Source: Acidobacteriota bacterium
GTDB lineage: Bacteria; Acidobacteriota; Blastocatellia; RBC074
NCBI GenBank assembly: GCA_019639255.1
Contig: JAHBSF010000002.1
Location: forward strand, 5,117-69,116
DNA length: 64,000 bases
Reading direction: 5' to 3'
In this document: positions 3,944-32,666 of the stretch, one piece after another
Layout of the letters: each line of letters opens with the position of its first letter
How positions within the stretch are numbered: the first letter of the stretch is position 1
Position numbers and translations under genes: made by a program
The notes under the pieces: generated by a model
The model's database searches: none
Told to the model about the DNA's origin: nothing
What the model saw: the letters and a program-made list of their open reading frames with translations, nothing else

Positions 3944-5149
3944 GTGCGTCCTCTCTTCCGGTTTGTGAACTTGAGCACATTGATTATAGTGTCGATAATC
4001 CGCGCGATATGTCTGCTTCCGGTTATGGGAGGATCGGTTTTCAGTCTGCTTGCTGTATGGGCGGGGGCGCGTTTTCGTCGCAGGGGCGGGGGAGTGCAGC
4101 CGGCTATATGGCCTGCGGTGAGCGTGCTCAAACCGGTTTACGGGCTGGAAAAGAATCTGCACGAGAATCTGCGCAGCGCCTGTTTGCAGGATTATCCGGA
4201 CTACGAAGTGATTTTTTCCGTGCAGCGGCCCGATGATCCCGCGCTTGCTGTGCTTGCGGAAATCGAGCGCGAATTCGGGCCCGATCGTGTGCGGGTGGTT
4301 ATAGAACAGAAGCGGCCCGGCACCAACGGAAAGATAAACAACCTTGCGGGCGGATTGCCCCGCGCGCGCCACGATGTTCTGGTCATAAGCGACAGCGATG
4401 TGCGTTTGCCGCGCGGCTATTTGCGTGCGATCATTTCGCCTCTTGCCGATGCCGGGGTCGGTTTCGTATGCACGCCTTATCGCGCCGCCGAAGCATATAC
4501 CTGGTTTGAGAAAATGGAACTGCTTTCGCTCAACGCGGACTTTATGCCGAGCGTGGTGTTTGCGTATGAAAGCGGCGCGTCGAAGTTCTGTCTGGGCGCG
4601 TCGATTGCGGTGCGGCGCGAAACGGTGGAGGAGGTGGGCGGAATCGAGGCGTTGGCGGATTATCTGGTCGAAGATTACGAAATGGGCCGCAGGATCATCG
4701 AGACGGGCAAGCGCGGCGTGCTGGTTGCTCCCGTAGTCGAAACGATGGTGGATCTGAAGCGGCCGGGCGACTGGTGGAAGCATCAGGTTTACTGGGACCA
4801 GAACACGCGCGCGGCGCGGCCGCTGGCGTTTTTCTTCACGGCGATAATTCGCGCCGTGCCGTTTGCGTTGCTGTATGCGCTGCTCGATCCGGCGAATCCG
4901 GCGGGGTGGGCGGTGCTTGCCGCCGCAGTTGCACTGAGAACGGGGACGGCCGCCTGGATTATGAGCCGCGTGTTTGAAGACCGCGAGGGCGTGCGCGCGT
5001 TGTGGCTGCTGCCGGCGCGCGATCTCTGCGGACTTCTTTCCTGGGCGCTGGCGTTTGTGCGGCGAACGACTACGTGGCGCGGCGCGAAATTCATACTGAC
5101 GCGCGACGGCAGGCTGATTGCGGAGGAGGAAGAAAGTGCTGAGTGCTGA
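3944..5149 (+). CDS. GT21-family glycosyltransferase (ceramide glucosyltransferase / HpnI-like), membrane-anchored
   Basis: There is an N-terminal TM segment. The conserved blocks match the ceramide glucosyltransferase family: 'SVLKPVYGLEKNLHENL...DYPDYEVIFSVQRPDDPA', 'GTNGKINNLAGG', 'ADYLVEDYEMGRRI'. The last ~6 codons and the stop lie inside the terminal repeat of palindromic element family 2. Confidence 0.7.
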   Translation: MRPLFRFVNLSTLIIVSIIRAICLLPVMGGSVFSLLAVWAGARFRRRGGGVQPAIWPAVSVLKPVYGLEKNLHENLRSACLQDYPDYEVIFSVQRPDDPALAVLAEIEREFGPDRVRVVIEQKRPGTNGKINNLAGGLPRARHDVLVISDSDVRLPRGYLRAIISPLADAGVGFVCTPYRAAEAYTWFEKMELLSLNADFMPSVVFAYESGASKFCLGASIAVRRETVEEVGGIEALADYLVEDYEMGRRIIETGKRGVLVAPVVETMVDLKRPGDWWKHQVYWDQNTRAARPLAFFFTAIIRAVPFALLYALLDPANPAGWAVLAAAVALRTGTAAWIMSRVFEDREGVRALWLLPARDLCGLLSWALAFVRRTTTWRGAKFILTRDGRLIAEEEESAEC

Positions 5150-5474
5150 GAAGAAGTGCTGAGTGCTGAGTGCGATTCGGAAATCAGAACTCTGTAAACA
5201 AGGTTCTTTGAGTTTTTCAGCCGCGGAGCGGCGAAAGATCTGTAGCCTGGTGCGTGAGCGCCAGGTCAGCAGAAAAAAAACGTTCAAGCCCTGAAAGGGC
5301 GAAAGATCTTCCGCCCCTCCGGGGCTGGTACGGCTTCTCTACACCCACCCAGGGCTTACGCCCTGGGCTACAGATCTTTCGCCGCTCCGCGGCTGAAAAA
5401 CTCAAAGAACTTTGTTTACAGAGTTCTGATTTCCGAATCGCACTCAGCACTTCTTCTCAGCACTTTCTTCTTCC
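5126..5474. repeat. Palindromic element family 2, copy 1 (~350 bp): long terminal inverted repeats ('...CGATTCGGAAATCAGAACTCTGTAAACAAGGTTCTTTGAGTTTTTCAGCCGCGGAGCGGCGAAAGATCTGTAGCC' and its reverse complement) around an asymmetric ~120-bp core; AGTGCTG heptad tandem repeats at both tips
   Basis: The inverted repeats were read directly. The left arm ~5126-5245 pairs with the right arm ~5355-5474. The core holds a third copy of the GAAAGATCT motif. Confidence 0.65.
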
Positions 5475-5503
5475 CCGATAACCGAGAGGGAGATGGGCGA
5501 CAG

Positions 5504-5932
5504 ATGTTCAGAGTTCTTGTTGCTGCGGCCATTGCGACGTTTTCGGGAGCGTTGGGGCAGATACTGCTGCGACGCGGAATGCAGGCCGTGGGGCCGCTTG
5601 AAAACTACGCTCCGCTGGAAATGCTCGCATACTTCTGGCGCGCGTTGATCGATCCGTATGTCATATGCGGGACGCTTTTGAGCGCGGTGTTTTATTTCGC
5701 ATTGCTTGCGGCGCTGGGCTGGACCGACGTTACGGTGGCTTTTCCTCTTACTGCGCTCGAATACGCATTCGGCGCATTGCTTGCCGTGATGATTCTTAAA
5801 GAGCGCGTGCCGGGGCTGCGCTGGACCGGCATCGCTCTGATAATTCTCGGCGTTGTACTCGTCAGTCTGACCGGAGAAGTCGATCATCCGGTCTCAGGTG
5901 ATGCAACGAAACAAATCGAAAGGAACGAATGA
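5504..5932 (+). CDS. Small 4-TM EamA/DMT-type membrane protein (ArnE/ArnF-like flippase subunit)
   Basis: 142 aa with four predicted hydrophobic helices. Its stop overlaps the next start (ATGA), so it is operonic with the DegT aminotransferase. Confidence 0.55.
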   Translation: MFRVLVAAAIATFSGALGQILLRRGMQAVGPLENYAPLEMLAYFWRALIDPYVICGTLLSAVFYFALLAALGWTDVTVAFPLTALEYAFGALLAVMILKERVPGLRWTGIALIILGVVLVSLTGEVDHPVSGDATKQIERNE

Positions 5933-7080
5933 AAGCTCAGGAGATGGAGAAGGCAAACATACAGGAAAGAAAAATTCCCGCAGCGAAGATACAGTTCTTG
6001 CCGGAAGACAGGGCGTGGATAACCGAACGTATCGCTGAAGTTCTCGAAAGCGGGCAGTTGACGCTCGGCAAATACGGCGCCGAGTTCGAACGCCGCTTCG
6101 CCGATTTGTGCGGAGTGCGCCACGGCGTTGCGGTCAACAGCGGCACGTCCGCTATGGAAATCATCCTTCGCGCCGCAGGCGTCGAGGGCCGCGAGGTGAT
6201 TGTTCCGACCAATACCTTTTTTGCGACCGCCGCTGCGGTACTGCACGCGGGCGCGCGCCCAGTGTTCATCGATATGGACCCGGAAACATTCGCCGTCAAA
6301 CCCGAAGATGTCGAAGCGGCGATCACACCGGACACCGCCGCGATAGTCGTAGTTCACATAGGCGGCATCGTCACGCATCGCATGCCGGAATTGCTGGCTA
6401 TAGCCGCTCGGCGGGGACTACCGCTGCTGGAAGATGCAGCGCACGCGCACGGATCATCGTTCGAAGGGGTTCGGGCCGGAGCCTTCGGACTTGCGGGCGC
6501 ATTCAGTTTTTATCCGACCAAGGTGATGACTTCGGGCGAGGGCGGGATGATCGTTACAAACGATGACCGCATAGCCGAGGAAGCGCGCATATACCGCGAT
6601 CAGGGCAAGGCCAGTTTTACCGTGAATGCACACGTGCGTCTGGGCTACAACTGGCGCATGTCTGAACCGCACGCAATCATCGGACTCAAACATCTCGAAC
6701 GCCTGCCGCAGATGATTGCAGACCGGCGGCGCATAGCGGCTTATTACGACCGGGCGCTGGCGTCGTTCAATAATCTCGACGTAGTGCGACCGGCCGAGGA
6801 CGGCGTCTCGAATTACTACAAATACATGGCCGTGCTGCGGGAAAGCCGCGACAGGAAGGCGTTGAAAATGGAATTGCGCGAGCGCTACGGCGTATCGCTT
6901 TCGGGCGAGGTTTATGAAGAACCGCTGCACAGGCAGCCGGTTTTTGCGGCGTATGCGACGCGTGAGCTTCCCGTTGCCGAAGACTACTGCGCGCGGCAGA
7001 TCTGCCTGCCGGTTTATTCCGGCATGGATGAGGCTGAAGCGCAGCAGGTCGTAGAGGCGCTTGCCTCGGTCATTGGATAG
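5929..7080 (+). CDS. DegT/DnrJ/EryC1/StrS-family PLP-dependent sugar aminotransferase (ArnB-like)
   Basis: It shows 'GKYGAEFERRFADLCGVRHGVAVNSGTSAM', 'FYPTKVMTSGEGGMIVTND' and the rest of the DegT fold signature along the full length. Confidence 0.85.
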   Translation: MKAQEMEKANIQERKIPAAKIQFLPEDRAWITERIAEVLESGQLTLGKYGAEFERRFADLCGVRHGVAVNSGTSAMEIILRAAGVEGREVIVPTNTFFATAAAVLHAGARPVFIDMDPETFAVKPEDVEAAITPDTAAIVVVHIGGIVTHRMPELLAIAARRGLPLLEDAAHAHGSSFEGVRAGAFGLAGAFSFYPTKVMTSGEGGMIVTNDDRIAEEARIYRDQGKASFTVNAHVRLGYNWRMSEPHAIIGLKHLERLPQMIADRRRIAAYYDRALASFNNLDVVRPAEDGVSNYYKYMAVLRESRDRKALKMELRERYGVSLSGEVYEEPLHRQPVFAAYATRELPVAEDYCARQICLPVYSGMDEAEAQQVVEALASVIG

Positions 7081-7125
7081 AAGCGATCTATACGCGATGT
7101 TTTTGAGGAGGAGCACAACGAAATT

Positions 7126-8043
7126 ATGGCAAAGGTTGCGGTAACGGGAGGAAGCGGGTTTATAGGTTCTCACGTAGTGGATGCGCTTGCGGATGCGGGG
7201 CACGAAGTGACGGTTATAGACCATCGCGTGCGGCCGCATCGCGAAGACGTGGCCTTCGAGGATGTGGATCTGATGGATCTGTCGTCGGTATTGTCGGCGA
7301 CGCGCGGCATCGAGCACGTATTCCATCTGGCCGCCGTGTCGAACGTCAACACGGCGCACAAGTATCCGGTTTATACGGCGGCGCTGAACGTGATGGGCAC
7401 TACACACGTTCTCGAAGCGGCGCGCATAAACGGGGCGCGCAGAGTTTATCTGGCTTCGACCGTATGGGTATACAACGGTATTCCCAACAACCTGCCTGCC
7501 GATGAAACCGCGCCCTTTTATCCGAACGGGGCGGGGCATATTTATACCTCGACGAAAATCGCATCGGAGATGGTATGCCACAATTACAGTCAATTGTACG
7601 GCGTGCCGGTGACGGTGCTGCGTTACGGCATCCCCTACGGTCCGCGAATGCGCGAGGAATTGCTGATCCCCGTGTTTCTGAAAAAAGCGCTTTCGGGCGA
7701 GGCGTTGACCGTATCGGGCAAGGGTGATCAGTTCCGCAAGTTTCTTTACATTACGGATCTTGCGCGCGCGCACGTTCTGGCTATGGACGAGCGCGCGGTC
7801 GGCGAGACTTACAACCTTGAAGGCGCGCGCAGAGTGACGGTGCTGGAAGTGGCTGAGGGAATAAAGAGGCTTGTGGGGGAGGGCGTGCGCATAGAGTTTA
7901 CGCCGGAGCGGCCCGGTGATTTCGGCGGCAAGGAAGTGATTGCTGAGAAGGCGAAGGCCGAGCTTGGATGGGCCCCGACCATCGAGTTCGGGGAAGGTCT
8001 TGAACGGACGGTTGAGTGGTTCAGGAAGAAGTGGTCGAAGTAA
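7126..8043 (+). CDS. NAD-dependent nucleotide-sugar epimerase/dehydratase (extended SDR; UDP-sugar 4-epimerase / UDP-GlcA decarboxylase-like)
   Basis: It has the 'VTGGSGFIGSHVV' Rossmann motif and the catalytic 'YTSTK' (YxxxK). Confidence 0.85.
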   Translation: MAKVAVTGGSGFIGSHVVDALADAGHEVTVIDHRVRPHREDVAFEDVDLMDLSSVLSATRGIEHVFHLAAVSNVNTAHKYPVYTAALNVMGTTHVLEAARINGARRVYLASTVWVYNGIPNNLPADETAPFYPNGAGHIYTSTKIASEMVCHNYSQLYGVPVTVLRYGIPYGPRMREELLIPVFLKKALSGEALTVSGKGDQFRKFLYITDLARAHVLAMDERAVGETYNLEGARRVTVLEVAEGIKRLVGEGVRIEFTPERPGDFGGKEVIAEKAKAELGWAPTIEFGEGLERTVEWFRKKWSK

Positions 8044-8068
8044 GAAACCGGAAGGGATCAGACAAGGG

Positions 8069-9205
8069 ATGGAAACGACAGCGAACATCCGTGAAGAAAT
8101 TGGGGGCGAAACGCAGCAGGGCGAAGTATGCCCGGTCAACTCCTGGAACGAATGGGACCCGCTCGAAGAGGTAATAGTCGGGCGGCTCGAAGGAGCCACG
8201 ATTCCGCCCGGACACGTCACGGTTACCTACAACGTGCCGCGCGCGGTAGCGCAGCTTGTGAAGCTTTTCGGCGGTATGCGCTATCCGGGGTGGATGAAAC
8301 GAGCCGCGCAGAAGCAGCTCGACGAGTTCATACACGTGCTCGAAGCCGAGGGCGTGCGCGTGCGCCGTCCGGAGGTTGTGGATTTCAAGCCGCGGTTTTC
8401 GACGCCCGACTGGAGTTCGCGCGGATTCTGCATCGCGTGTCCGCGCGACGGCTTTCTGGTCGTGGGCGACGAGATAATAGAAACGCCGATGGCGTGGCGC
8501 TCGCGCTATCACGAAAGCTTTGCATACAAGCCGCTGTTCAAGGAATATTTTCGCGCCGGCGCCCGATGGACCGTCGCGCCGCGCCCGCAACTGCTGGATT
8601 CGCTTTTCGACTACAGGTTCAGGATGCCCGAACCGGGCGGGCCTATGCGGTATGTGATAAACGATTCCGAACCCGTATTCGATGCGGCGGATTTCGTGCG
8701 CGCCGGGCGTCACATTTTTTATCAGAAGAGCAACGTAACGAACGATTCCGGCGTGGAGTGGCTGCGGCGGCATCTGGGCGAGCGGTGCGAACTGGTCGAG
8801 ATCGAGAGCCGGTGTCTGGACCCGATGCACATAGATTCGAGCGTGACGCTGCTGGCGCCGGGCAGGATTCTGGTCAATCCCGAATATATAGATGTTGAGC
8901 GTTTGCCGAAGCATTTCAAATCGTGGGATGTGATCGTAGCGCCGGAGCCCGATCCGCTGGCGAGTTCGGACGTGATGGCGCGGTTTTTTTCGATGTGCAG
9001 CAAATGGATCAGCGTCAACGTGCTGTCGCTCGACGAAAAGCGCGTGATCGTGGAAAAAACACAGGTCGGGATGATGAAGAAGCTGCGCGAATACGGCTTC
9101 GAACCCATTCCCGTAGCATTCGCCAACTACCTGCCTTTCGGCGGCGCATTCCATTGCGCGACGCTCGACATCCGCCGGCGCGGCGTGTTGCAGGATTACT
9201 TCTAG
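8069..9205 (+). CDS. Amidinotransferase (L-arginine:glycine amidinotransferase / StrB1 inosamine-phosphate amidinotransferase family)
   Basis: The start was set at the 'METTANIRE' Met (codon 44 of ORF 7940..9205). It gives near-collinear matches to AGAT family landmarks: 'PVNSWNEWDPLEEVIVGR', 'IETPMAWRSR', 'EPVFDAADFVRAGRHIF', 'DPMHID', 'VNVLSLDEKRV', and the active-site Cys block 'GGAFHCATLDIRRRGVLQDYF'. Confidence 0.88.
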   Translation: METTANIREEIGGETQQGEVCPVNSWNEWDPLEEVIVGRLEGATIPPGHVTVTYNVPRAVAQLVKLFGGMRYPGWMKRAAQKQLDEFIHVLEAEGVRVRRPEVVDFKPRFSTPDWSSRGFCIACPRDGFLVVGDEIIETPMAWRSRYHESFAYKPLFKEYFRAGARWTVAPRPQLLDSLFDYRFRMPEPGGPMRYVINDSEPVFDAADFVRAGRHIFYQKSNVTNDSGVEWLRRHLGERCELVEIESRCLDPMHIDSSVTLLAPGRILVNPEYIDVERLPKHFKSWDVIVAPEPDPLASSDVMARFFSMCSKWISVNVLSLDEKRVIVEKTQVGMMKKLREYGFEPIPVAFANYLPFGGAFHCATLDIRRRGVLQDYF

Positions 9206-9246
9206 ATCGAACCACAGCAGAATGGTACATACAACGGAGTCGGCAA

Positions 9247-9389
9247 CTGGGTACGCACGCGCCCTCGCGTGCGGTTTGTGACGAACAATAGCACGCGAGG
9301 GCGCGTGCGTACCCAGCAATGTGTCCCAATGTTTCGTGGTCTGATTTAGATCGAACCGTCCGGCAGTGGAATCGAAGAGAAACCGCGGA
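9247..9389 (+). repeat. Repeat family 3, copy 1: perfect 24-bp-stem hairpin (GGGTACGCACGCGCCCTCGCGTGC ... GCACGCGAGGGCGCGTGCGTACCC) followed by a conserved ~85-bp element (GCGTGCGTACCCAGCAATGTGTCCCAATGTTTCGTGGTCTGATTTAGATCG ... GAAGAGAAACCGCGGA) upstream of the GT39 gene
   Basis: Direct read. It is a near-identical copy of the element at 17056..17139. Confidence 0.5.
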
Positions 9390-9425
9390 ACACACGGAAT
9401 GAAACAGAACACACGGAATGGAAAG

Positions 9426-11153
9426 ATGTTTTCCGTGAGTTCCGTTTCACTCCGCGTTTTCCGCGGTTTTTCTGTGCTGCTCGCGGCCGCAATCGTCGTA
9501 TACGTTTTGCCCTCGGCGCGCGCGATACTCGACGACGGCGATGCGCTTTATTCAACCGTTGCAGCGGAGATGATTTCGCGCAACGACTGGGTGACGCCGC
9601 AGGCGGGAGGCGTCCGTTTTCTGGACAAGCCGCCGCTGATGTACTGGCTCGTAGCCTTGTCCTACCTCGTCTTCGGCGTGAGCGAATGGGCGGCGCGGTT
9701 GCCTGCGGCGATCGGGATTTTTGCAACTGCATTGATGCTTGCATATCTCGGGAGGCGCGTTGCGGGGGATGACCGCGCGGGGATCGTCGCGGGTCTGATT
9801 TTCATTCTTTCGGCCGGCACGCTGTTTTTTACGCTCGAAGCCTTCCCCGACATATTTCTGGTTGTGTGCCTGACGGGTGCGGTGCTCTGTTTTCTGGAAC
9901 TGCATTGCGCGGAAAAACAATCTGTCTGGGCGGCTGCAGGACTGGGCGCGGCGCTTGCAGGAGCTACGCTTTCAAAAAGCCTGATCGGGATTTTCTTCCC
10001 GCTTGCGACAATCGCAGCGTTTCTGTTTGTCGAACGGAAACGGCCGCGCGTGACGTGGTCGCATATGGCGCTGATTGCTGCGGTGTTTGTTGGGATTGCA
10101 TTGCCGTGGCACGTCATTGCTGCGGCGCGCAATCCGGGATTTCTTTATCATTACTTCGTCAACGAACAGATATTGCGGTTTTTCGGACGGCGAGAACCGG
10201 TGGATTACGGGTCGATACCCGCGCCGATTTTCTGGGCGCTGCTGCTTGTGTGGCTGTTTCCGTGGAGTGCGTTTCTGCCTGCAACGTGGAGATTGCCCGG
10301 GGGCGATGAAAACAGGTCGGCAATAATCAGGATGAGCTGGTGCTGGGCGGGGGTAGTGATCGGTTTTTTTACGCTGTCGTCGCGGCTGGAACATTATTCG
10401 TTTCCGGCGCTGCCGCCGCTTGCGCTGCTCATCGGCATTGCGCTCGCAGATACGAATCGAAAGTCGATAAGCCGGAGTTTTACTGCGCTGGCGATGTTCG
10501 GCGTCGTACTCGGATTGGCGGCTGGGGGCATTGGCGTGTGGTGGAATGCAACGGGCGCGGAGATGTTCGCCGGAGCGGAGGCGGGTGCGCGCAGCCGTGC
10601 ATATACAAATCTTTTTTCGCCGCTTTTTGAGCTGCCTGCCGAAACGCGCGCAAAACTGATATGGCCGCTAGTAGGGGCGCTTGGCGTATTCGCGGCAGGG
10701 ACGGCGGCTGCGTGGTTGTGGGAGCGGCGCGGGAATCGACTTGCAGCATTCGGTTCGCTTGCCGCAATGATGGCCGTATTTTGTCTGCTTGCGCTCTACA
10801 GCCTGCGATTGTGCGAGGGGCTGCTTTCATCAAAGCCGTTCGGGTTGGCGCTCAAGGATCGGGAGGGTGCGCAGGTCATAGTCTGCGGCGATTACGAATC
10901 GGCGAATTCGATCCTGTTTTACGCGCCGGTGCGGTTGCTGCTTTATGAAGGAAGAGCGGATTCGATCGCCGCGGGGCTGCGTTATGACGATGCGCCGAAG
11001 ATGATGATTACGCGCGAAGAGGTGGATGTATTGCGCGGCGGAGAAGTCCGCGTATACCTGCTGGGGACGCGCAAACAGATTGAAGATCTGGGTTGGGATG
11101 CATCGCGCGCAGTACTCGGGCAGGGTGGGCGCCTGCTGGTGGTTAACCGCTGA
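9426..11153 (+). CDS. GT39/GT83-family polyprenyl-phosphate-sugar-dependent glycosyltransferase (ArnT / PMT-like), polytopic membrane protein
   Basis: It has the N-terminal 'DDGDALY...DKPPLMYW' loop typical of the ArnT/PMT family, followed by >10 TM helices. The start was chosen at 'MFSVSS' (codon 21 of the ORF). Starts at 9366 or 9399 cannot be excluded. Confidence 0.78.
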   Translation: MFSVSSVSLRVFRGFSVLLAAAIVVYVLPSARAILDDGDALYSTVAAEMISRNDWVTPQAGGVRFLDKPPLMYWLVALSYLVFGVSEWAARLPAAIGIFATALMLAYLGRRVAGDDRAGIVAGLIFILSAGTLFFTLEAFPDIFLVVCLTGAVLCFLELHCAEKQSVWAAAGLGAALAGATLSKSLIGIFFPLATIAAFLFVERKRPRVTWSHMALIAAVFVGIALPWHVIAAARNPGFLYHYFVNEQILRFFGRREPVDYGSIPAPIFWALLLVWLFPWSAFLPATWRLPGGDENRSAIIRMSWCWAGVVIGFFTLSSRLEHYSFPALPPLALLIGIALADTNRKSISRSFTALAMFGVVLGLAAGGIGVWWNATGAEMFAGAEAGARSRAYTNLFSPLFELPAETRAKLIWPLVGALGVFAAGTAAAWLWERRGNRLAAFGSLAAMMAVFCLLALYSLRLCEGLLSSKPFGLALKDREGAQVIVCGDYESANSILFYAPVRLLLYEGRADSIAAGLRYDDAPKMMITREEVDVLRGGEVRVYLLGTRKQIEDLGWDASRAVLGQGGRLLVVNR

Positions 11154-17888: not shown

Positions 17889-18064
17889 CAGTACTCTGCC
17901 AATTAAGTTCTATGAGTTTTTCAGCCGCGAAGCGGCGAAAGATCTGTAGCCCAGGGCGGCGAGCCCTGGGTGAGTGTAGAGAAGCGGCGCCAGCCCCGGA
18001 GGGGCGGAAGATCTTTCGCCTCTTCGCGGCTGAAAAATTCTAAGAACTTTGTTTACCGAGTACT
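17889..18064. repeat. Palindromic element family 2, copy 2 (shorter, ~175 bp; diverged left tip, core in opposite orientation to copy 1)
   Basis: 'GAGTTTTTCAGCCGCGAAGCGGCGAAAGATCTGTAGCCC ... GGCGGAAGATCTTTCGCCTCTTCGCGGCTGAAAAATTCTAAGAACTTTGTTTACCGAGTACT'. Confidence 0.6.
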
Positions 18065-18098: not shown

Positions 18099-19340
<1,242 letters not shown>

Positions 19341-26624: not shown

Positions 26625-29600
26625 ATGTTCCCCGGCTATACAGTTACCCAAGAAATATCGTCGGATTCGGTATATTCCCGGTACAGGTTGTATCGGGCGC
26701 GCAGGGTTGCGGACGGGCAACCGGTTCTGATCAAGGCAGCGAAACCGAAGAGCAACGGGCCGCACGGCGATGAATTGCTCGCGCGAGAGTACAATATTCT
26801 ACACAGCCTCAATGTTGAAAGCGTACCGAAGGTAATCGAGTTGCTGCACACCCCTGCCGGCGTCCATCTCGTGATCTGCGATCCGGGAGGACTTCCCCTG
26901 TGCACCGAACTTGCCCCGGGCCGCATTACGCTCGATCAGTTTCTGCGCCTCGCCGTTCGCATAACATCTGCTGTTGGAGAGATTCATCGCCGCCGAATCG
27001 TGCTTCGCTGCATAAATCCGGAGGGAGTATTTGTCGATCCGTCCCAAGACCGCATATCGATCGTGGATATGAGCCTCGCAAATCCGATTGCGCCTCCGGC
27101 ATCTGATCTGCCCTCTGAAGACGACCTTCAGGGCCTCCTCGGTTACTGCGCGCCGGAACTTACGGGCAGAATGAACCGCGCCGTCGACTTCAGTTCCGAT
27201 CTGTACTCGCTTGGCGTACTCTTCTACGAACTGATTACCGGACGGCTGCCATTCGAATCTTCGGATCCGATTGAACTCATCCACAGGCATCTGGCGGTAA
27301 CGCCTCTTGAGCCCGCCGCTGTCGATCCGCACATCCCCGAACAGTTGTCGCGGCTTGTAATGAAGATGCTTGCGAAAGCCCCGGAGGATCGATATCAGAC
27401 CGCTGCTGGTTTATACGCCGACATCGAAACCTGCACCCGCGATTGGATGCACAGCGGCCGGATTCGCCGATTTGCGCTCGGCGCCTGCGACGTTGCGGAT
27501 TCTTTTTCCGCACCGGAAAAACTGTACGGCAGGCAGCGCGAAGCAGAAGATCTGACAACAGCACTGAATCGGGCGTGCTCCGGACGCACCACAATTGTTC
27601 TGGTGCAGGGCGAATCCGGAATAGGCAAAACATCGCTCATACTGCAGCTTTGCAAACCCATGATCCGGCGCCGCGGCTATTTTATTACCGGAAAGTTCGA
27701 TCAGGTTTGTTCGGCGACACCCTACGGTGTATTGATCCGCGCATTGCGGGAGCTGGTTTCGCAGCTTCTAGGCGAAAGCGAAGCTCAATTAGCGACGTGG
27801 CGAGCGAGATTATCAGAAGTGTTGGGAGCTAACGCAGGCGCGATTGCCGAAGTGTTGCCGGAAATCGAATTGATCCTCGGCAAACAACCGCCCTCGCCTT
27901 CGGTGGCGCCCGCTGAGGCGCTGAATCGGTTTCAATCGGTGTTCCATAACTTAATCGCTGCTGTAGCGCGGCCTGAACATCCGCTGGTTGTATTCCTCGA
28001 CGATCTGCAATGGGCCGACGCCGGAACTCTGGAACTCATCCAAACGATGCTGACGCGAAATTCTACATTATCGCTTCTGCTGATCGGTGCATTTCGTGAC
28101 GGCGAAACCGACGACGATCACCCGCTTTCGCGTGTGCTTGCGACGATGGAATCAGCAGGAATCGCAATTGAACGTATTATTCCCGCCCCGCTCAATCGTG
28201 AGGATATGGAACGGATGCTTGCCGAGACGCTCCGCTGCAACGCCGAACAATCAGCATCGCTTGCGTCGTACTTGCTCGACAAGACCGGAGGCAATCCTTT
28301 TTTTGTGACGCAGTTGCTGAAATCGTTGAGCGAAGAAGGGCGGCTTCGCTTCGATCAGATGCGCCGGCAATGGGTATATCGAATCGACGAGGAAACGGAT
28401 GAGTCATCCGGGAATGAGGCGGTCGACCTGATTACACGCAGGTTGATTCGCTTGTCCGACGACGCAAGGCACGCGTTGACGGCGGCTTCCCTGATGGGAA
28501 ATTCATTCGATGCAGCAACCATAGCGATTGTTACCGATCGCCCCTCGGATGTTACTGTAAAGGCGCTGCTGGAAGCGGTGGAGCAAACATTCCTCATCCA
28601 ATCGCAGGAGCAAACATTCTCTTTCCTCCACGATCAGGTGCAACTCGCGGCATACTCGCTCATTCCGGAACGCGATCGACCATCGGTCCATCTCGCCGTC
28701 GGGCGACTTCTTCAAACACGCGGCGAGCCTGTTTCCGAAGACGATCATTTGTTCGATGTAGTCCATCACCTGAACATTGGAGCCGGGTTGATCGAGGATC
28801 ACGCCGAGAGGCTGGCGCTTGCACGCCTCAATCTCTCCGCCGGCGGAAAAGCACTGCGCGCCACGGCGTTCGATGCGGCGCGAGGTTACTTTACGGCAGG
28901 TGCACGGCTGATACAGGAAGACGAATGGACCACTGAGTACGAACTTGCATTTGCTCTTCATCACGGCGCGGCCGAATGCAGTTATTTATGCAGGGATTTC
29001 GATTCCGCCGATTCGGCGTTCGGCGAACTTATCAAGCGCGCCCGCACGAATACCGATCGAGCAAGCATATTCAACCTTCGCATAGTGCAGTACGAATACC
29101 AATCGCGGTATGAAGACGCAATAAATTGCGCGCGCACGGCGCTCGAACCGTTCGGCGTGCATTTGCCGGAAACCGGTTCGGTGCAGCAGGAGCTCGAAAG
29201 CGAAATGGAATCGATCGATCTGCTGCTCGGCGGCCGCAGAATAGCAGACCTCGCCGACCTTCCTTCGGCAACCCAACCGGAAATCAGGATGGTTATGAAA
29301 CTGCTGACCGCAACGTGGCCGTCGGCCTATATATCCGGAAGGCAGGCTCTCACTCGCCTGCTTTCCGCAACAATCGTCAGGTTATCGCTTGAATACGGAA
29401 ACGCGGAAGAATCCGCCTACGGCTACGTTACGCACGCAATCACTCTTGGACCGGTTCGGGAGGATTACCACGCAGCCTACGAGTTCGGGCTCCTTGCGCT
29501 GGAGGTGAATGAACGCTTCAACGACAGACGGCTGCGTGCAAAGGTGTTCCAGCAGTTCAATGCCCACGTAAACCTTTGGCGTCGCCCGCTTGAAACCTGT

Positions 29601-32600
29601 ATCGGATACGCACGCGAAGCCTGCCGCAGCGGATTGGAGAACGGGGATTTCACCTACGGCGTTTACGGCGCATTCACCGAATCGTGGGCGGGGCTGCTGA
29701 GTGCACCGAATCTCGCAGTCTTCATACGCGACTATGCCCCGAACACGGAGCTTTTCAGGAGATTGAATGCTTCGGCGATCGCCGACGCACAGGAGTTGAT
29801 CCTGAACTGGGCGCGCGCGCTTCGCGGCGAAACCGGATCACCCGCAAGCCTGTCGCACGGAGATTTTGACGAATCCCATTACATTGAAAAGTACCGCGAC
29901 GCCCCCTTCATCGCCGTCTATTACATCGTCGCGCGAATGCATCTGTTTTATCTGCACGGCGATATGGACTCCGCGCGGGATATGGCGCATCGCGGCGACG
30001 AAATAATTCACCATCTGAAAGGGACGATCTGGCCCGTAGAATTCCGGTTCTGGAAATCCCTGATCGCAGCAGCAGACCACACAAGCCGTGATGAAAAGAA
30101 CGGAGGTCCATATCACGAGGACCTGGATGAGGCGTGCAGATCTTTCGCCGTACTTGCAGCGAACTGCCCGGAAAACTTCTCGTGCCAGTCGCTCATACTG
30201 GAAGCCGAACGCGAAAGACTTGCGGGCAATGCGGCGCCGGCGATGAATCTTTATGAACGGGCCATCGAGTATGCCGCACATACCGGTTCAATCCGTTATC
30301 GCGCGCTCGCGCTTGAACTGTGTGCACGGCTTCAGGCGGCGGAAGGCCGCAGAAATGTTGCAGCTCTGTTTGCCGCTGAAGCGCGCGCCTGCTATCTGGC
30401 CTGGGGCGCGGTAACGAAATGGGAGCAGTTGGGAAGCCTATATCCGGAGGCGGTACGAACACACGAGGGGGCGACCGCATACGGACAATGGCGAGCAGGA
30501 TTGCCGGGGCAGGTAAAACCGGAAGGTAGTGACGGCAACAGGGCCCTTGATCACTTAAGCGTTCTGAAGGCGGCCCAGGCGATTGCCGGTGAAATGGAGC
30601 CCGACAAACTGCTGGCAAAGCTTACAAGAATTGTTACCGAAAATGCAGGAGCTACACGCGGATGCCTGTTGCTTGAATCGGCGAATGGCGCCCGCCTGCA
30701 CGCTGAATGCAGGACCGACAGCCGGGCTGATATTGACCGGGTAATTCTGCACCGGGCGGCGCCCCTGGCTGATTTGCAGGATCTTCCCGCCAGGCTGATC
30801 AACTACGTCAGACGTTCCGGAGAAAGCATCGTGCTGGAGGACGCCGCACTCGATGAGCGCTACGGCGATGAACCCCATTTTGCCCGCAACGGGGTCCGCT
30901 CGATTATGTGCGTTCCGGTAATAAATCAGGGCAGGCTCGTGGGCGTAATTTATCTTGAGAACAACAAGACCGCGAGTGCTTTTACGTCGAACCGGATATC
31001 GGTATGCGGAGTACTTGCATCGCAGGCTGCCGTATCGCTCGAAAACTCCCGTCTATACGACGAAATGAAATCGGGCAGGGAAACCCTGAAATCGATTATG
31101 GAGGGCACGGCTGCTGTCACGGGCGGCGATTTTTTTGCCTCACTGGTTCGACATCTGGCGTCGGCGATTCCGGTCAAAATCGCATTCGTCACCGAATGCG
31201 CAAACTCCGAACGCTCGCGCGCTCGCACGGTGGCATTCTGGGACGGCAAGGGTCTGGCGGAAAATTTTGAGTATGAAGTGCGGCAAACTACATGCGAAAA
31301 GGTCTACGCGGGCGAAACCTGCTTCTATGCCGACGAACTCCAGAAGCTGTTCCCCCAAGAAAAAGCGCTCACTGTGCTCGACGCTCAAAGCTACATCGGA
31401 CTTCCCATATTCGATTCGCAACACGAAGTCATAGGACACCTTGCCGTAATCGACGATGAACCGATGAACGAGCCGAGGGGAATGGAAATCCTGAAAATAT
31501 TTGCAGCACGCGCCGGGGCTGAACTCGAACGTATGGCGGCCGAGGCCGGTTTGAGGCGAGCAATGGCGGAAATCGAACAGTTAAAGAATCGACTGCATGC
31601 GGAGAATATTTACCTGCAGGAAGAAATCCGCTGCGAGCACAACTTTGATGAAATCGTGGGCACAAGCCCCGCGCTCATTGAAGTATTGCAACAGGTGGAA
31701 CGCGCCGCACCCACCGATGCCACGGTCCTCATACTGGGTGAAACCGGCGTCGGAAAGGAACTCATAGCGCGTGCAATACACGATCGCAGCCCGCGCAGGA
31801 CGCGGCCGCTGGTGAAGGTCAACTGCGGGGCCATTTCGTCGGGACTGGTCGAGAGCGAACTGTTCGGACACGTTAAGGGCGCATTCACCGGAGCGCTCGA
31901 CAAACGTACGGGCAGGTTTGAACTCGCGAACGGCGGCACCATCTTCCTCGATGAAGTCGGCGAACTCCCGCTCGAAGCCCAGGTCAAACTGCTGCGCGTG
32001 CTGCAGGAAGGCGAATTCGAACCCGTAGGCAGCAGCAAAACCGTCCGGGTCGATGTGCGCGTCATTGCGGCTACCAACCGGAACCTGGATGAAGAAGTCC
32101 GGACCGGACGCTTCCGCACCGATCTGTTTTACCGACTGAATGTGCTGCCGATAAATACTCCGCCGCTGCGCAGCCGGCGCTCCGACATTCCGCAGCTCGC
32201 AATGTTCTTCGCCGCACGCTTCGCACGACGGTTCGGCCGCGCAATAGATTCCATATCTCAGGAAACTGTTGACCGTATGGTGAACTACCACTGGCCGGGC
32301 AACATACGCGAACTTCAAAACCTGATCGAACGCGCCGTAATTCTCAGTACGGGTTCCGTACTTTCGATTTCGCCCGAACTCATCCCACTATCCCCGCCCC
32401 ATCAGGAGTACACAATCGACACACACCGCTCCTACAGCCTCCCCCAAATCCATATTTCTCCCTCGCCGGCAACCGAAAAGTACAATTCCCCTCCCCCCAC
32501 GCTCGTTGAACTGCAACGCCAACACATACTCAATGTTCTCAACCAGACCAAATGGGTAATTGAAGGCAAACACGGCGCCGCCAGACTCCTCGACCTTCAC

Positions 32601-32666
32601 CCCAATACCCTTCGCAGCAAATTGAAAAAAATGGGCATCAAACGCCCAACCTCACCCGCTTCCTGA
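26625..32666 (+). CDS. Giant (2013 aa) signalling protein: degenerate Ser/Thr-protein-kinase-like domain + AAA16/STAND P-loop NTPase + helical (TPR-like) region + GAF domains + sigma-54 interaction (AAA+) domain + Fis-type HTH
   Basis: A continuous ORF. Kinase-fold landmarks run through aa 1-270 ('GYCAPE', 'LGVLFYELITGRLPF'), but 'HRRRIVLRCINPEG' and 'IVDMSLA' replace HRDLKPEN and DFG. The Walker A is 'VQGESGIGKTSL'. GAF-like blocks follow ('CVPVINQGRLVGVIYLEN', 'YIGLPIFDSQHEVIGHLAV'). The EBP motifs are 'ILGETGVGKE', 'ELFGHVKGAFTGA' and 'RVIAATNRNL'. The C-terminal HTH is 'AARLLDLHPNTLRSKLKKMGI'. Confidence 0.85.
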   Translation: MFPGYTVTQEISSDSVYSRYRLYRARRVADGQPVLIKAAKPKSNGPHGDELLAREYNILHSLNVESVPKVIELLHTPAGVHLVICDPGGLPLCTELAPGRITLDQFLRLAVRITSAVGEIHRRRIVLRCINPEGVFVDPSQDRISIVDMSLANPIAPPASDLPSEDDLQGLLGYCAPELTGRMNRAVDFSSDLYSLGVLFYELITGRLPFESSDPIELIHRHLAVTPLEPAAVDPHIPEQLSRLVMKMLAKAPEDRYQTAAGLYADIETCTRDWMHSGRIRRFALGACDVADSFSAPEKLYGRQREAEDLTTALNRACSGRTTIVLVQGESGIGKTSLILQLCKPMIRRRGYFITGKFDQVCSATPYGVLIRALRELVSQLLGESEAQLATWRARLSEVLGANAGAIAEVLPEIELILGKQPPSPSVAPAEALNRFQSVFHNLIAAVARPEHPLVVFLDDLQWADAGTLELIQTMLTRNSTLSLLLIGAFRDGETDDDHPLSRVLATMESAGIAIERIIPAPLNREDMERMLAETLRCNAEQSASLASYLLDKTGGNPFFVTQLLKSLSEEGRLRFDQMRRQWVYRIDEETDESSGNEAVDLITRRLIRLSDDARHALTAASLMGNSFDAATIAIVTDRPSDVTVKALLEAVEQTFLIQSQEQTFSFLHDQVQLAAYSLIPERDRPSVHLAVGRLLQTRGEPVSEDDHLFDVVHHLNIGAGLIEDHAERLALARLNLSAGGKALRATAFDAARGYFTAGARLIQEDEWTTEYELAFALHHGAAECSYLCRDFDSADSAFGELIKRARTNTDRASIFNLRIVQYEYQSRYEDAINCARTALEPFGVHLPETGSVQQELESEMESIDLLLGGRRIADLADLPSATQPEIRMVMKLLTATWPSAYISGRQALTRLLSATIVRLSLEYGNAEESAYGYVTHAITLGPVREDYHAAYEFGLLALEVNERFNDRRLRAKVFQQFNAHVNLWRRPLETCIGYAREACRSGLENGDFTYGVYGAFTESWAGLLSAPNLAVFIRDYAPNTELFRRLNASAIADAQELILNWARALRGETGSPASLSHGDFDESHYIEKYRDAPFIAVYYIVARMHLFYLHGDMDSARDMAHRGDEIIHHLKGTIWPVEFRFWKSLIAAADHTSRDEKNGGPYHEDLDEACRSFAVLAANCPENFSCQSLILEAERERLAGNAAPAMNLYERAIEYAAHTGSIRYRALALELCARLQAAEGRRNVAALFAAEARACYLAWGAVTKWEQLGSLYPEAVRTHEGATAYGQWRAGLPGQVKPEGSDGNRALDHLSVLKAAQAIAGEMEPDKLLAKLTRIVTENAGATRGCLLLESANGARLHAECRTDSRADIDRVILHRAAPLADLQDLPARLINYVRRSGESIVLEDAALDERYGDEPHFARNGVRSIMCVPVINQGRLVGVIYLENNKTASAFTSNRISVCGVLASQAAVSLENSRLYDEMKSGRETLKSIMEGTAAVTGGDFFASLVRHLASAIPVKIAFVTECANSERSRARTVAFWDGKGLAENFEYEVRQTTCEKVYAGETCFYADELQKLFPQEKALTVLDAQSYIGLPIFDSQHEVIGHLAVIDDEPMNEPRGMEILKIFAARAGAELERMAAEAGLRRAMAEIEQLKNRLHAENIYLQEEIRCEHNFDEIVGTSPALIEVLQQVERAAPTDATVLILGETGVGKELIARAIHDRSPRRTRPLVKVNCGAISSGLVESELFGHVKGAFTGALDKRTGRFELANGGTIFLDEVGELPLEAQVKLLRVLQEGEFEPVGSSKTVRVDVRVIAATNRNLDEEVRTGRFRTDLFYRLNVLPINTPPLRSRRSDIPQLAMFFAARFARRFGRAIDSISQETVDRMVNYHWPGNIRELQNLIERAVILSTGSVLSISPELIPLSPPHQEYTIDTHRSYSLPQIHISPSPATEKYNSPPPTLVELQRQHILNVLNQTKWVIEGKHGAARLLDLHPNTLRSKLKKMGIKRPTSPAS

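Follow-up and report, generated by a model that had tools for sequence, protein, structure and literature searches.

“Guanidine-substituted” bacteriohopanepolyols have been known since 1985, and the guanidine form of bacteriohopanetetrol (BHT) cyclitol ether is attributed to Methylobacterium organophilum. The HpnI/HpnK/HpnJ pathway was reportedly shown genetically in Burkholderia cenocepacia, in a study said to be that of Schmerk et al. from 2015. A second point of comparison is the streptidine branch of streptomycin, which uses a dehydrogenase, the DegT-family aminotransferase StsC, and the amidinotransferase StrB1, with a soluble inosamine phosphate as the substrate. The HpnI/HpnK/HpnJ route to BHT glucosamine and BHT cyclitol ether has been summarized in the literature (PMC5462960 and PMC12583986). 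Here we describe a six-gene operon of an Acidobacteriota bacterium, found at positions 3944 to 11153 of a 64,000-nucleotide stretch of contig JAHBSF010000002.1 (the whole stretch is hereafter the window). It encodes an HpnI-type glycosyltransferase, a small EamA membrane protein, a DegT aminotransferase, a short-chain dehydrogenase/reductase (SDR), an amidinotransferase (AmT), and an ArnT-like glycosyltransferase. Judged from its sequence, it is an HpnI-family sugar amination and guanidinylation cassette and not an Arn operon, and we hold with moderate confidence that it would act as a hopanoid head-group module, in which an amino sugar is placed on a hopanoid and its amine is converted to a guanidine.

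Guanidine-substituted BHT cyclitol ether has been reported from Methylorubrum extorquens and other methylotrophs, Zymomonas mobilis, Geobacter sulfurreducens, Dolichospermum, Aphanizomenon, and a Gloeocapsa enrichment, and guanidine-substituted BHT glucosamine from Dolichospermum and Nostoc (PMC5358736 and PMC5642901). A 2025 survey of Alphaproteobacteria hopanoid genes, which names M. organophilum as the species of the first BHT cyclitol ether identification, saw no obvious new candidate genes near hpn clusters, and a 2025-26 microsynteny study lists hpnL, hpnM, hpnS, and hpnT and no amidinotransferase. In our own literature search, which is provisional and had subscription journals outside its scope, no gene for the hopanoid guanidine step was found, nor any work combining an amidinotransferase with hopanoids. 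As a class of product, envelope lipids with a guanidino sugar or cyclitol are therefore known, and the gene of the guanidine step appears to be unassigned. The first-pass annotation of this DNA had regarded a guanidino-sugar envelope lipid as undescribed, a claim that fails because the guanidine-substituted forms of BHT cyclitol ether and BHT glucosamine had already been reported chemically. What does appear to be new is a transaminase-based route that is independent of HpnK.

The amidinotransferase gene lies on the plus strand at 8069 to 9205. Its open reading frame (ORF) extends from 7940 to 9205, and the ATG at 8069 is the probable start, giving a soluble protein of 378 amino acids (aa), equal in length to a 97%-identical database protein. 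AmT has no Pfam match, and the June 2026 NCBIfam release holds no model specific to its clade. Against solved structures, it matched amidinotransferases over its full length, namely, SxtG (PDB 6u1r; 3e-130, residues 18 to 377, 55% identity), human AGAT (3e-91, 45% identity), HsvA (2e-83), and StrB1 (4e-69). The motifs bearing the catalytic Asp, His, and Cys (CPRD, FDAADF, PMHID, and FHCATLD) are all kept, the last three aligning to AGAT Asp254, His303/Asp305, and Cys407, and the catalytic motifs are invariant across 21 homologs. The block GGAFHCATLDIRRRG, quoted in the first-pass annotation, is present as well. With both the full-length similarity and the Cys-His-Asp motifs of the AGAT/StrB1/SxtG amidinotransferases (EC 2.1.4.-), AmT is by homology a genuine member of this family, as had been claimed, and it is presumably L-arginine dependent; we propose that it turns a sugar amine into a guanidine. 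SxtG is the closest solved amidinotransferase and has the same catalytic motifs. However, in a neighbor-joining tree, SxtG and AGAT fell outside the clade formed by the window AmT and every hpn-linked AmT, and there are no toxin-cluster genes in the window.

With each species represented by one genome, a scan yielded 80 loci with AmT relatives 57 to 83% identical to the window protein, and these were searched with the window proteins plus HpnK, HpnJ, HpnI, and HpnL from one locus. In at least four phyla, AmT was located in or beside hpnI/J/K/L operons. The hpn-linked relatives, 59 to 68% identical to the window AmT, came from Alpha- and Betaproteobacteria, Cyanobacteria, and Planctomycetota. 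At 37 of the 38 Methylobacterium, Methylorubrum, and Methylobacteriaceae loci, an hpnK-hpnJ-hpnI-hpnL cluster is divergent from AmT. In M. organophilum NBRC 15689, these neighbors pass the NCBIfam models for HpnK (355 bits), HpnJ (811 bits), HpnI (447 bits), and HpnL (353 bits), and Enterovirga has the same arrangement. In Hyphomicrobiaceae, Sphingomonadales, Lichenihabitans, Acetobacteraceae, and metagenome-assembled genomes (MAGs) of Hyphomicrobiales, hpnL, sometimes with hpnK, adjoins AmT. Among cyanobacteria, Rhizonema carries hpnJ, hpnK, hpnI, and AmT on one strand and Iningainema carries hpnK, hpnI, and AmT, and a Gloeocapsa MAG was also among the AmT loci. A planctomycete has a tight co-directional operon of GT21(HpnI), a B12 radical SAM gene (HpnJ-like), a second radical SAM gene, YdjC (HpnK-like), an HpnL-like gene, and AmT, while Burkholderia sp. 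H160 has the order radical SAM-HpnL-AmT. In delta-type MAGs, an LPG_synthase_TM (HpnL-like) gene lies upstream of AmT, and there and in Rokubacteria MAGs, the HpnL-like gene is the only hpn-type neighbor. HpnL, which is related to the lysyl-phosphatidylglycerol flippase region, is the most constant neighbor of AmT outside Acidobacteria. The linkage to DegT, epimerase, and GT39-like genes, for which the first-pass annotation had suggested looking in other genomes, is confined to one lineage, and across phyla the recurrent partners are hpnI, hpnJ, hpnK, and hpnL. The first-pass annotation had named a conserved AmT context free of the sugar genes as grounds for refutation. Such a context does exist, but it refutes the idea in form only, being that of another lipid-sugar pathway and not of guanidinoacetate or homoarginine synthesis.

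Some of these loci have peculiarities of their own. Rhizonema sp. NSF051 encodes two tandem amidinotransferases (L004, 7248-8312 and 8381-9493, with 66% and 59% identity to that of the window) beside hpnI. Two AmT loci were present in a single Methylobacterium MAG, one of them hpn-linked (L055) and the other (L080) with no hpn gene within ca. 5 kb on either side. A radical SAM protein of ca. 385 aa is tied to hpnL and AmT in the planctomycete (L087, 6908-8065), Burkholderia sp. H160 (L084, 7643-8809), and Iningainema (L008, 12358-13296). It is neither HpnH nor HpnJ and has only weak similarity to BlsE and MoaA; an identity as HpnH was considered for the planctomycete and Burkholderia proteins and rejected, as they had no match to the HpnH model. 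This protein may be another undescribed hopanoid side-chain enzyme.

The first gene of the window operon (3944-5149, plus strand, with the true start probably near 3986) encodes a glycosyltransferase (GT) of the GT21/GT2 type (Pfam PF13506, Glyco_transf_21, 3e-40). It scored 334.1 bits on the NCBIfam HpnI model TIGR03472, passing the curated equivalog cutoff of 310 and exceeding the GTs of bona fide hpnJ/hpnK operons in Rhizonema (304) and the planctomycete (249); its relatives in sister cassettes scored 298 to 315. The NCBI entry for an identical protein (100%, 387 aa), from an acidobacterial MAG, names it HpnI. In the PDB search, the sole solved relative was ceramide glucosyltransferase (1e-24), whose acceptor is a lipid alcohol and not a polyprenyl phosphate. 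The NCBIfam and PDB searches gave no match to ArnC, GtrB, or DPMS. Published data provide some context, since a genome survey found HpnI-model matches only in genomes with SHC and HpnH, and Acidobacteria of subdivisions 1 and 3 (SD1 and SD3) produce bacteriohopanepolyols and carry hpnI, those with hpnI having shc. The GT21 would probably attach an (amino)sugar to the terminal hydroxyl of BHT. Lipid A, hopanoid, and protein had all been named as possible acceptors; the HpnI model and the AmT-hpn linkage favor the hopanoid, and lipid A and protein persist only in the rival explanations weighed below.

All six genes run in the same direction on the plus strand, as had been stated, ORF positions and profile assignments being in agreement. 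The identical six-gene order was found at three other acidobacterial loci with unrelated flanks: L001 and L081 (AmT 83% identical to that of the window in both) and L082/L083 of Bryobacteraceae (78%). As the six genes are kept while their flanks differ, they form a self-contained conserved unit and no chance juxtaposition. With AmT fixed in a conserved sugar/lipid cassette, a guanidino-sugar lipid, as first suggested, stands as the most reasonable product. The cassette itself is, by gene content and order, a variant of a commoner acidobacterial one. Homologs of the window GT at ca. 60% identity are numerous in Acidobacteria, and at three homolog loci examined, the order was GT21(HpnI)-YdjC(HpnK)-EamA-DegT-SDR-PMT_2, with no AmT. 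The YdjC proteins of these parent cassettes scored 368 and 399 bits on the HpnK model (cutoff of 232.6), and the parent YdjC shares 55% identity with Enterovirga HpnK, which itself lies inside an hpnKJIL cluster. Compared to the parent, the window variant has lost HpnK and has AmT inserted between the SDR and GT-C genes. No deacetylase remains in the cassette, which leaves DegT as the one evident supplier of a free amine to AmT. In a more divergent lineage (contig L094), GT21, DegT, and SDR genes (54, 66, and 74% identical to those of the window) are convergent with AmT (66%), and neither EamA nor GT-C is present.

HpnI followed by HpnK and EamA was seen in Acidobacteria at L088, L089, and L090 (10001-16400), and L095 (10001-12517) carries a minimal HpnI-HpnK-EamA trio. 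According to published work, hpnI and hpnJ occur in SD1 and SD3 Acidobacteria but hpnK does not; the acidobacterial HpnI-HpnK pairs, as identified here by model scores, qualify this lack of hpnK. Acidobacteria with HpnI-HpnK-EamA may produce lipids of the BHT glucosamine type.

The DegT/DnrJ/EryC1-family pyridoxal phosphate aminotransferase (5929-7080, plus strand; Pfam PF01041, 6e-115) had as its best NCBIfam models PseC (249 bits), LegC-like, DesI, and ArnB (191.9 bits), all below the cutoff, and as its best PDB matches perosamine synthetase (3e-65), scyllo-inositol transaminase (2e-55), and ArnB (3e-48). Its probable role is to provide the sugar amine that is amidinated. The gene that follows (7126-8043, plus strand) encodes an extended SDR of 305 aa with the epimerase/dehydratase fold (Pfam Epimerase, 2e-54), closest in the PDB to UDP-glucuronate decarboxylase (UXS; 4e-45) and GalE-type epimerases. 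Its catalytic-region motif reads ASTVWVY, as opposed to ASTSEVY in UXS, so that the Ser-Glu pair is lost, while YTSTK is kept. ASTVWVY is also kept in the SDRs of both the AmT-type and the parent cassettes, which are orthologous and share 73 to 81% identity. A classical 4,6-dehydratase and a decarboxylase were both excluded as identities for this protein, which lacks Asp-Glu and Ser-Glu, respectively. By fold and relatives, the SDR is probably a sugar oxidase/epimerase that gives a keto group to DegT.

Between the GT21 and DegT genes, a single small gene (5504-5932, plus strand) encodes a 142-aa, single-domain EamA protein of the drug/metabolite transporter (DMT) superfamily (Pfam EamA, 2e-9). 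A gene of this kind always comes after HpnI or HpnI-HpnK in the acidobacterial cassettes, including the minimal trio. By analogy with ArnE/F and possibly HpnL, the protein is a candidate flippase for a cationic glycolipid. A small EamA gene is also found directly upstream of AmT in delta-type contigs (L007, 9578-10018; L091, 7558-7962; L092, 1822-2226), and unicellular cyanobacteria have an EamA-family gene downstream of AmT (L013, 5846-6703; L018, 2900-3676). This proximity outside Acidobacteria suggests that EamA is a recurrent transporter or flippase partner of AmT, alternative to HpnL. The window thus shares with the canonical hpn-linked loci an AmT of the same clade but has no HpnK or HpnL beside it, and we infer that DegT with the SDR, and EamA, fill the respective roles. 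The last gene (9366-11153, plus strand) encodes an ArnT-like membrane GT-C (Pfam PMT_2, 4e-18; PMT, 1e-12), whose only PDB match was ArnT (5ezm; 4e-25, residues 32 to 394). The gene occurs in the parent cassettes, where AmT is absent, and is missing from the L094 locus, in which GT21, DegT, and SDR accompany AmT. The ArnT-like GT-C is a periplasmic-side transferase and a member of the parent cassette with or without AmT.

In the pathway that we propose, the SDR would oxidize a sugar hydroxyl, either on a nucleotide sugar or on a lipid-bound sugar, and DegT would convert the keto group to a primary amine. The HpnI-type GT21 would join the sugar to the terminal hydroxyl of BHT at the cytoplasmic face of the inner membrane. 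Through its Cys-His-Asp center, AmT would then move the amidino group of L-arginine to the sugar amine, releasing ornithine and leaving a permanently cationic guanidino-sugar hopanoid, which the small EamA protein would flip to the outer leaflet in parallel to HpnL. The order of these steps and the position of the amine are provisional, and the ArnT-like GT-C is given no reaction. The most likely product is a hopanoid carrying a transaminase-derived, amidinated sugar, with the hopanoid as the predicted acceptor. A broader proposal combines four elements: that the AmT clade is the missing enzyme for guanidine-substituted bacteriohopanepolyols; that the window represents a second, HpnK-free route (SDR and DegT, then amidination) to an undescribed head group, a guanidino sugar other than 2-guanidino-glucose or a cyclitol; that EamA is the flippase; and that the ArnT-like GT-C couples to another envelope component. 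We put this combination forward only tentatively.

The proposed pathway resembles that of HpnI/HpnK/HpnJ in that the window GT scores above the HpnI cutoff, a strong HpnK comes after HpnI in the parent cassette, and a nitrogen-bearing, sugar-type hopanoid head group is predicted. In contrast, the window lacks HpnK, HpnJ, and HpnL and adds AmT, the small EamA protein, and the ArnT-like GT-C, and its amine probably comes from transamination by SDR and DegT and not from deacetylation of N-acetylglucosamine (GlcNAc). Guanidine-substituted BHT cyclitol ether and BHT glucosamine belong to the predicted class of product, and AmT relatives belong to hpnIJKL loci in Methylobacterium and Methylorubrum as well as to hpn loci of cyanobacteria; however, the guanidine of the window product would sit on a transaminase-installed amine, and the head group may differ. 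The oxidize-transaminate-amidinate logic is that of streptidine, AmT being homologous to StrB1 and DegT to scyllo-inosose aminotransferases, although the substrate here is probably a nucleotide- or lipid-linked sugar and AmT is nearer to SxtG and AGAT than to StrB1.

Several observations weigh against a hopanoid product. No other hopanoid gene (shc, hpnH, hpnG, hpnJ, hpnK, or hpnL) is found in the window, so the hopanoid side-chain neighbors of a typical hpnI are lacking there. The SDR lacks the acid/base residues of the known dehydratases and decarboxylases that form keto sugars, which leaves the keto substrate of DegT unexplained. The ArnT-like gene is likewise unexplained by a hopanoid model because a GT-C needs a phosphate-activated lipid-sugar donor and a hopanoid glycoside is none. 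The cassette also maps nearly one to one on the Arn/Lgm blueprint of GT2, small flippase, aminotransferase, SDR, and ArnT-like protein. As for AmT, the neighbor-joining tree was built without bootstraps, and a search for residues separating the DegT-linked from the HpnK-linked AmTs gave none. The closest non-acidobacterial AmT (72% identity; L002, 7520-13232) is accompanied by a sulfotransferase, GATase_4, a SfLAP (sulfolipid-addressing-type) membrane protein, and an SbmA/BacA-like ABC transporter, and homologs in Streptomyces, Nitrospirota, and some cyanobacteria have no hpn neighbors within the sequence at hand. From these contexts, it follows that the AmT clade is not exclusively hopanoid linked.

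The main rival is a pathway of the Arn/Lgm type, in which the GT21 would load polyprenyl phosphate, EamA would flip the product, and the ArnT-like protein would pass the sugar on to a periplasmic acceptor such as lipid A, with amidination replacing formylation and deformylation. Five of the six genes have functional Arn counterparts, ArnT is the only solved relative of the ArnT-like protein, and the GT-C obtains a donor. The parent trio of GT2, YdjC deacetylase, and ArnT-like protein also parallels FlmF2/NaxD/FlmK of Francisella and LgmA/LgmC/LgmB of Bordetella. With the Arn (ArnA/B/C/D/E/F/T) and Lgm/Flm systems the window shares an aminotransferase with an SDR, a membrane GT, a small DMT-type flippase, an ArnT-like GT-C, and, as a likely purpose, positive charge in the envelope. 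However, its GT is of the HpnI/GT21 type and not of the ArnC type, passing the HpnI cutoff and matching ceramide glucosyltransferase, and the operon has an amidinotransferase and contains no ArnC-type GT2, formyltransferase, or deformylase; nor does its SDR have the Ser-Glu of UDP-glucuronate decarboxylases. Every Arn equivalog cutoff was missed, by ArnT (NF009784, 130.7 bits against 567), ArnB (NF008658, 191.9 against 631), ArnE (28.1 against 92), and ArnF (24.3 against 99) alike, and EamA is a single gene and not a pair. Because of these failed cutoffs, assignment to the Arn family was rejected, and the Arn-like operon of the first-pass annotation is retained as an analogy only. The strong HpnK score of the parent YdjC, the AmT relatives of other phyla that keep company with hpn genes and have no ArnT-like gene, the L094 locus, which keeps GT21-DegT-SDR and AmT without GT-C or EamA, and the occurrence of HpnI-HpnK-EamA with no adjacent GT-C all tell against such a pathway as well, and we regard it as unlikely.

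Two pathways might instead share one operon, HpnI putting a plain sugar or GlcNAc on hopanoids while DegT, SDR, AmT, EamA, and the ArnT-like protein send a guanidino sugar to lipid A or protein by way of a polyprenyl-phosphate GT2 encoded elsewhere. This would retain the HpnI assignment and give the GT-C a conventional donor, and it suits the behavior of DegT-SDR-PMT_2 as an accessory block, absent or displaced relative to HpnI-HpnK-EamA. However, it requires an unseen GT2, EamA follows HpnI or HpnK and not the GT-C, the partners of AmT elsewhere are hopanoid genes, and L094 holds GT21, DegT, SDR, and AmT together in the absence of a GT-C. We consider this division of labor rather unlikely. 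That AmT is a passenger whose product is a small, soluble guanidino compound, such as guanidinoacetate or a precursor of the homoarginine or toxin type, with EamA perhaps as exporter, is very unlikely: the characterized relatives AGAT, SxtG, and StrB1 do act on small molecules, several AmT homologs are in nonlipid contexts, small EamA/DMT proteins can export metabolites, and EamA-AmT pairs exist, but AmT is fixed between the SDR and GT-C genes at four independent acidobacterial loci (the window and the three others) whose flanks differ, recurs beside GT21-DegT-SDR in L094 and with hpn operons across phyla, belongs to a clade that leaves out SxtG and AGAT, and has near it no guanidine riboswitch or other guanidine-metabolism gene among the window genes and Rfam matches.

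The tight spacing originally described for the operon is true of the EamA and DegT genes, where the DegT start overlaps the EamA stop by 4 nucleotides (nt), but not of the GT21 and EamA genes, which are separated by a gap of 354 bp. This gap is occupied by a palindromic insertion of ca. 320 bp (5142-5464, with no strand), whereas homologous cassettes have only ca. 30 to 45 bp at this point. Its outer 25-nt arms are 100% complementary and its inner arms (5162-5306 and 5307-5451) 84% complementary. Each arm contains a match to the Acido-Lenti-1 RNA motif (Rfam RF01687), at 5348-5394 on the plus strand (46.9 bits) and at 5219-5265 on the minus strand (37.4 bits), the two being inverted. No HpnK remnant was found in the 354-bp gap 3' of hpnI. 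The insertion looks like a hairpin element, or one resembling a miniature inverted-repeat transposable element, made from an orphan Acido-Lenti-1 motif, and it is outside the pathway. A third RF01687 match (37.5 bits) is intergenic at 17923-17970 on the minus strand, upstream of an esterase gene (18114-19340). The Rfam scan showed no family beyond Acido-Lenti-1 near the operon, and a promoter and terminator scan gave no signal above background to mark the operon boundaries.

The remainder of the window is ordinary chromosome. It includes genes for a cytochrome oxidase and a molybdopterin/NrfD complex, for a large kinase/sigma-54 activator, and for TonB-dependent receptors; the receptors that flank the cassette have CarboxypepD_reg domains and, like the Acido-Lenti-1 motifs, are in keeping with an origin in Acidobacteria. 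The kinase gene (26625-32666, plus strand) encodes 2,013 aa that join an N-terminal Ser/Thr kinase, an AAA_16 (STAND-like) ATPase, GAF, a sigma-54 activator, and HTH_8, an unusually large signaling fusion in a single protein. At 2399-2620, the longest ORF of an enolase-superfamily gene opens with a low-complexity stretch rich in Lys, Arg, and Glu that is probably untranslated, the true start being likely at ca. 2618.

If the hopanoid head-group assignment is true, a 40-year-old orphan step in hopanoid biosynthesis would be reduced to a candidate gene, and the distribution of guanidine lipids would become predictable from genomes. Studies of sediments and soils use guanidine-substituted BHT cyclitol ether as a biomarker specific to its source. 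The substrates of amidinotransferases would extend from small soluble amines to a membrane-lipid sugar. The assignment bears on the published puzzle of hpnI without hpnK in SD1 and SD3, as the window variant would swap deacetylation for transamination plus amidination. Composite hopanoids not yet described would also be expected in soil Acidobacteria, members of a dominant soil phylum for which analyses of intact hopanoids are scarce, and having a candidate gene opens the question of what a permanently cationic hopanoid does in the outer membrane, for instance for membrane ordering, under acid stress, or in the resistance to cationic peptides.

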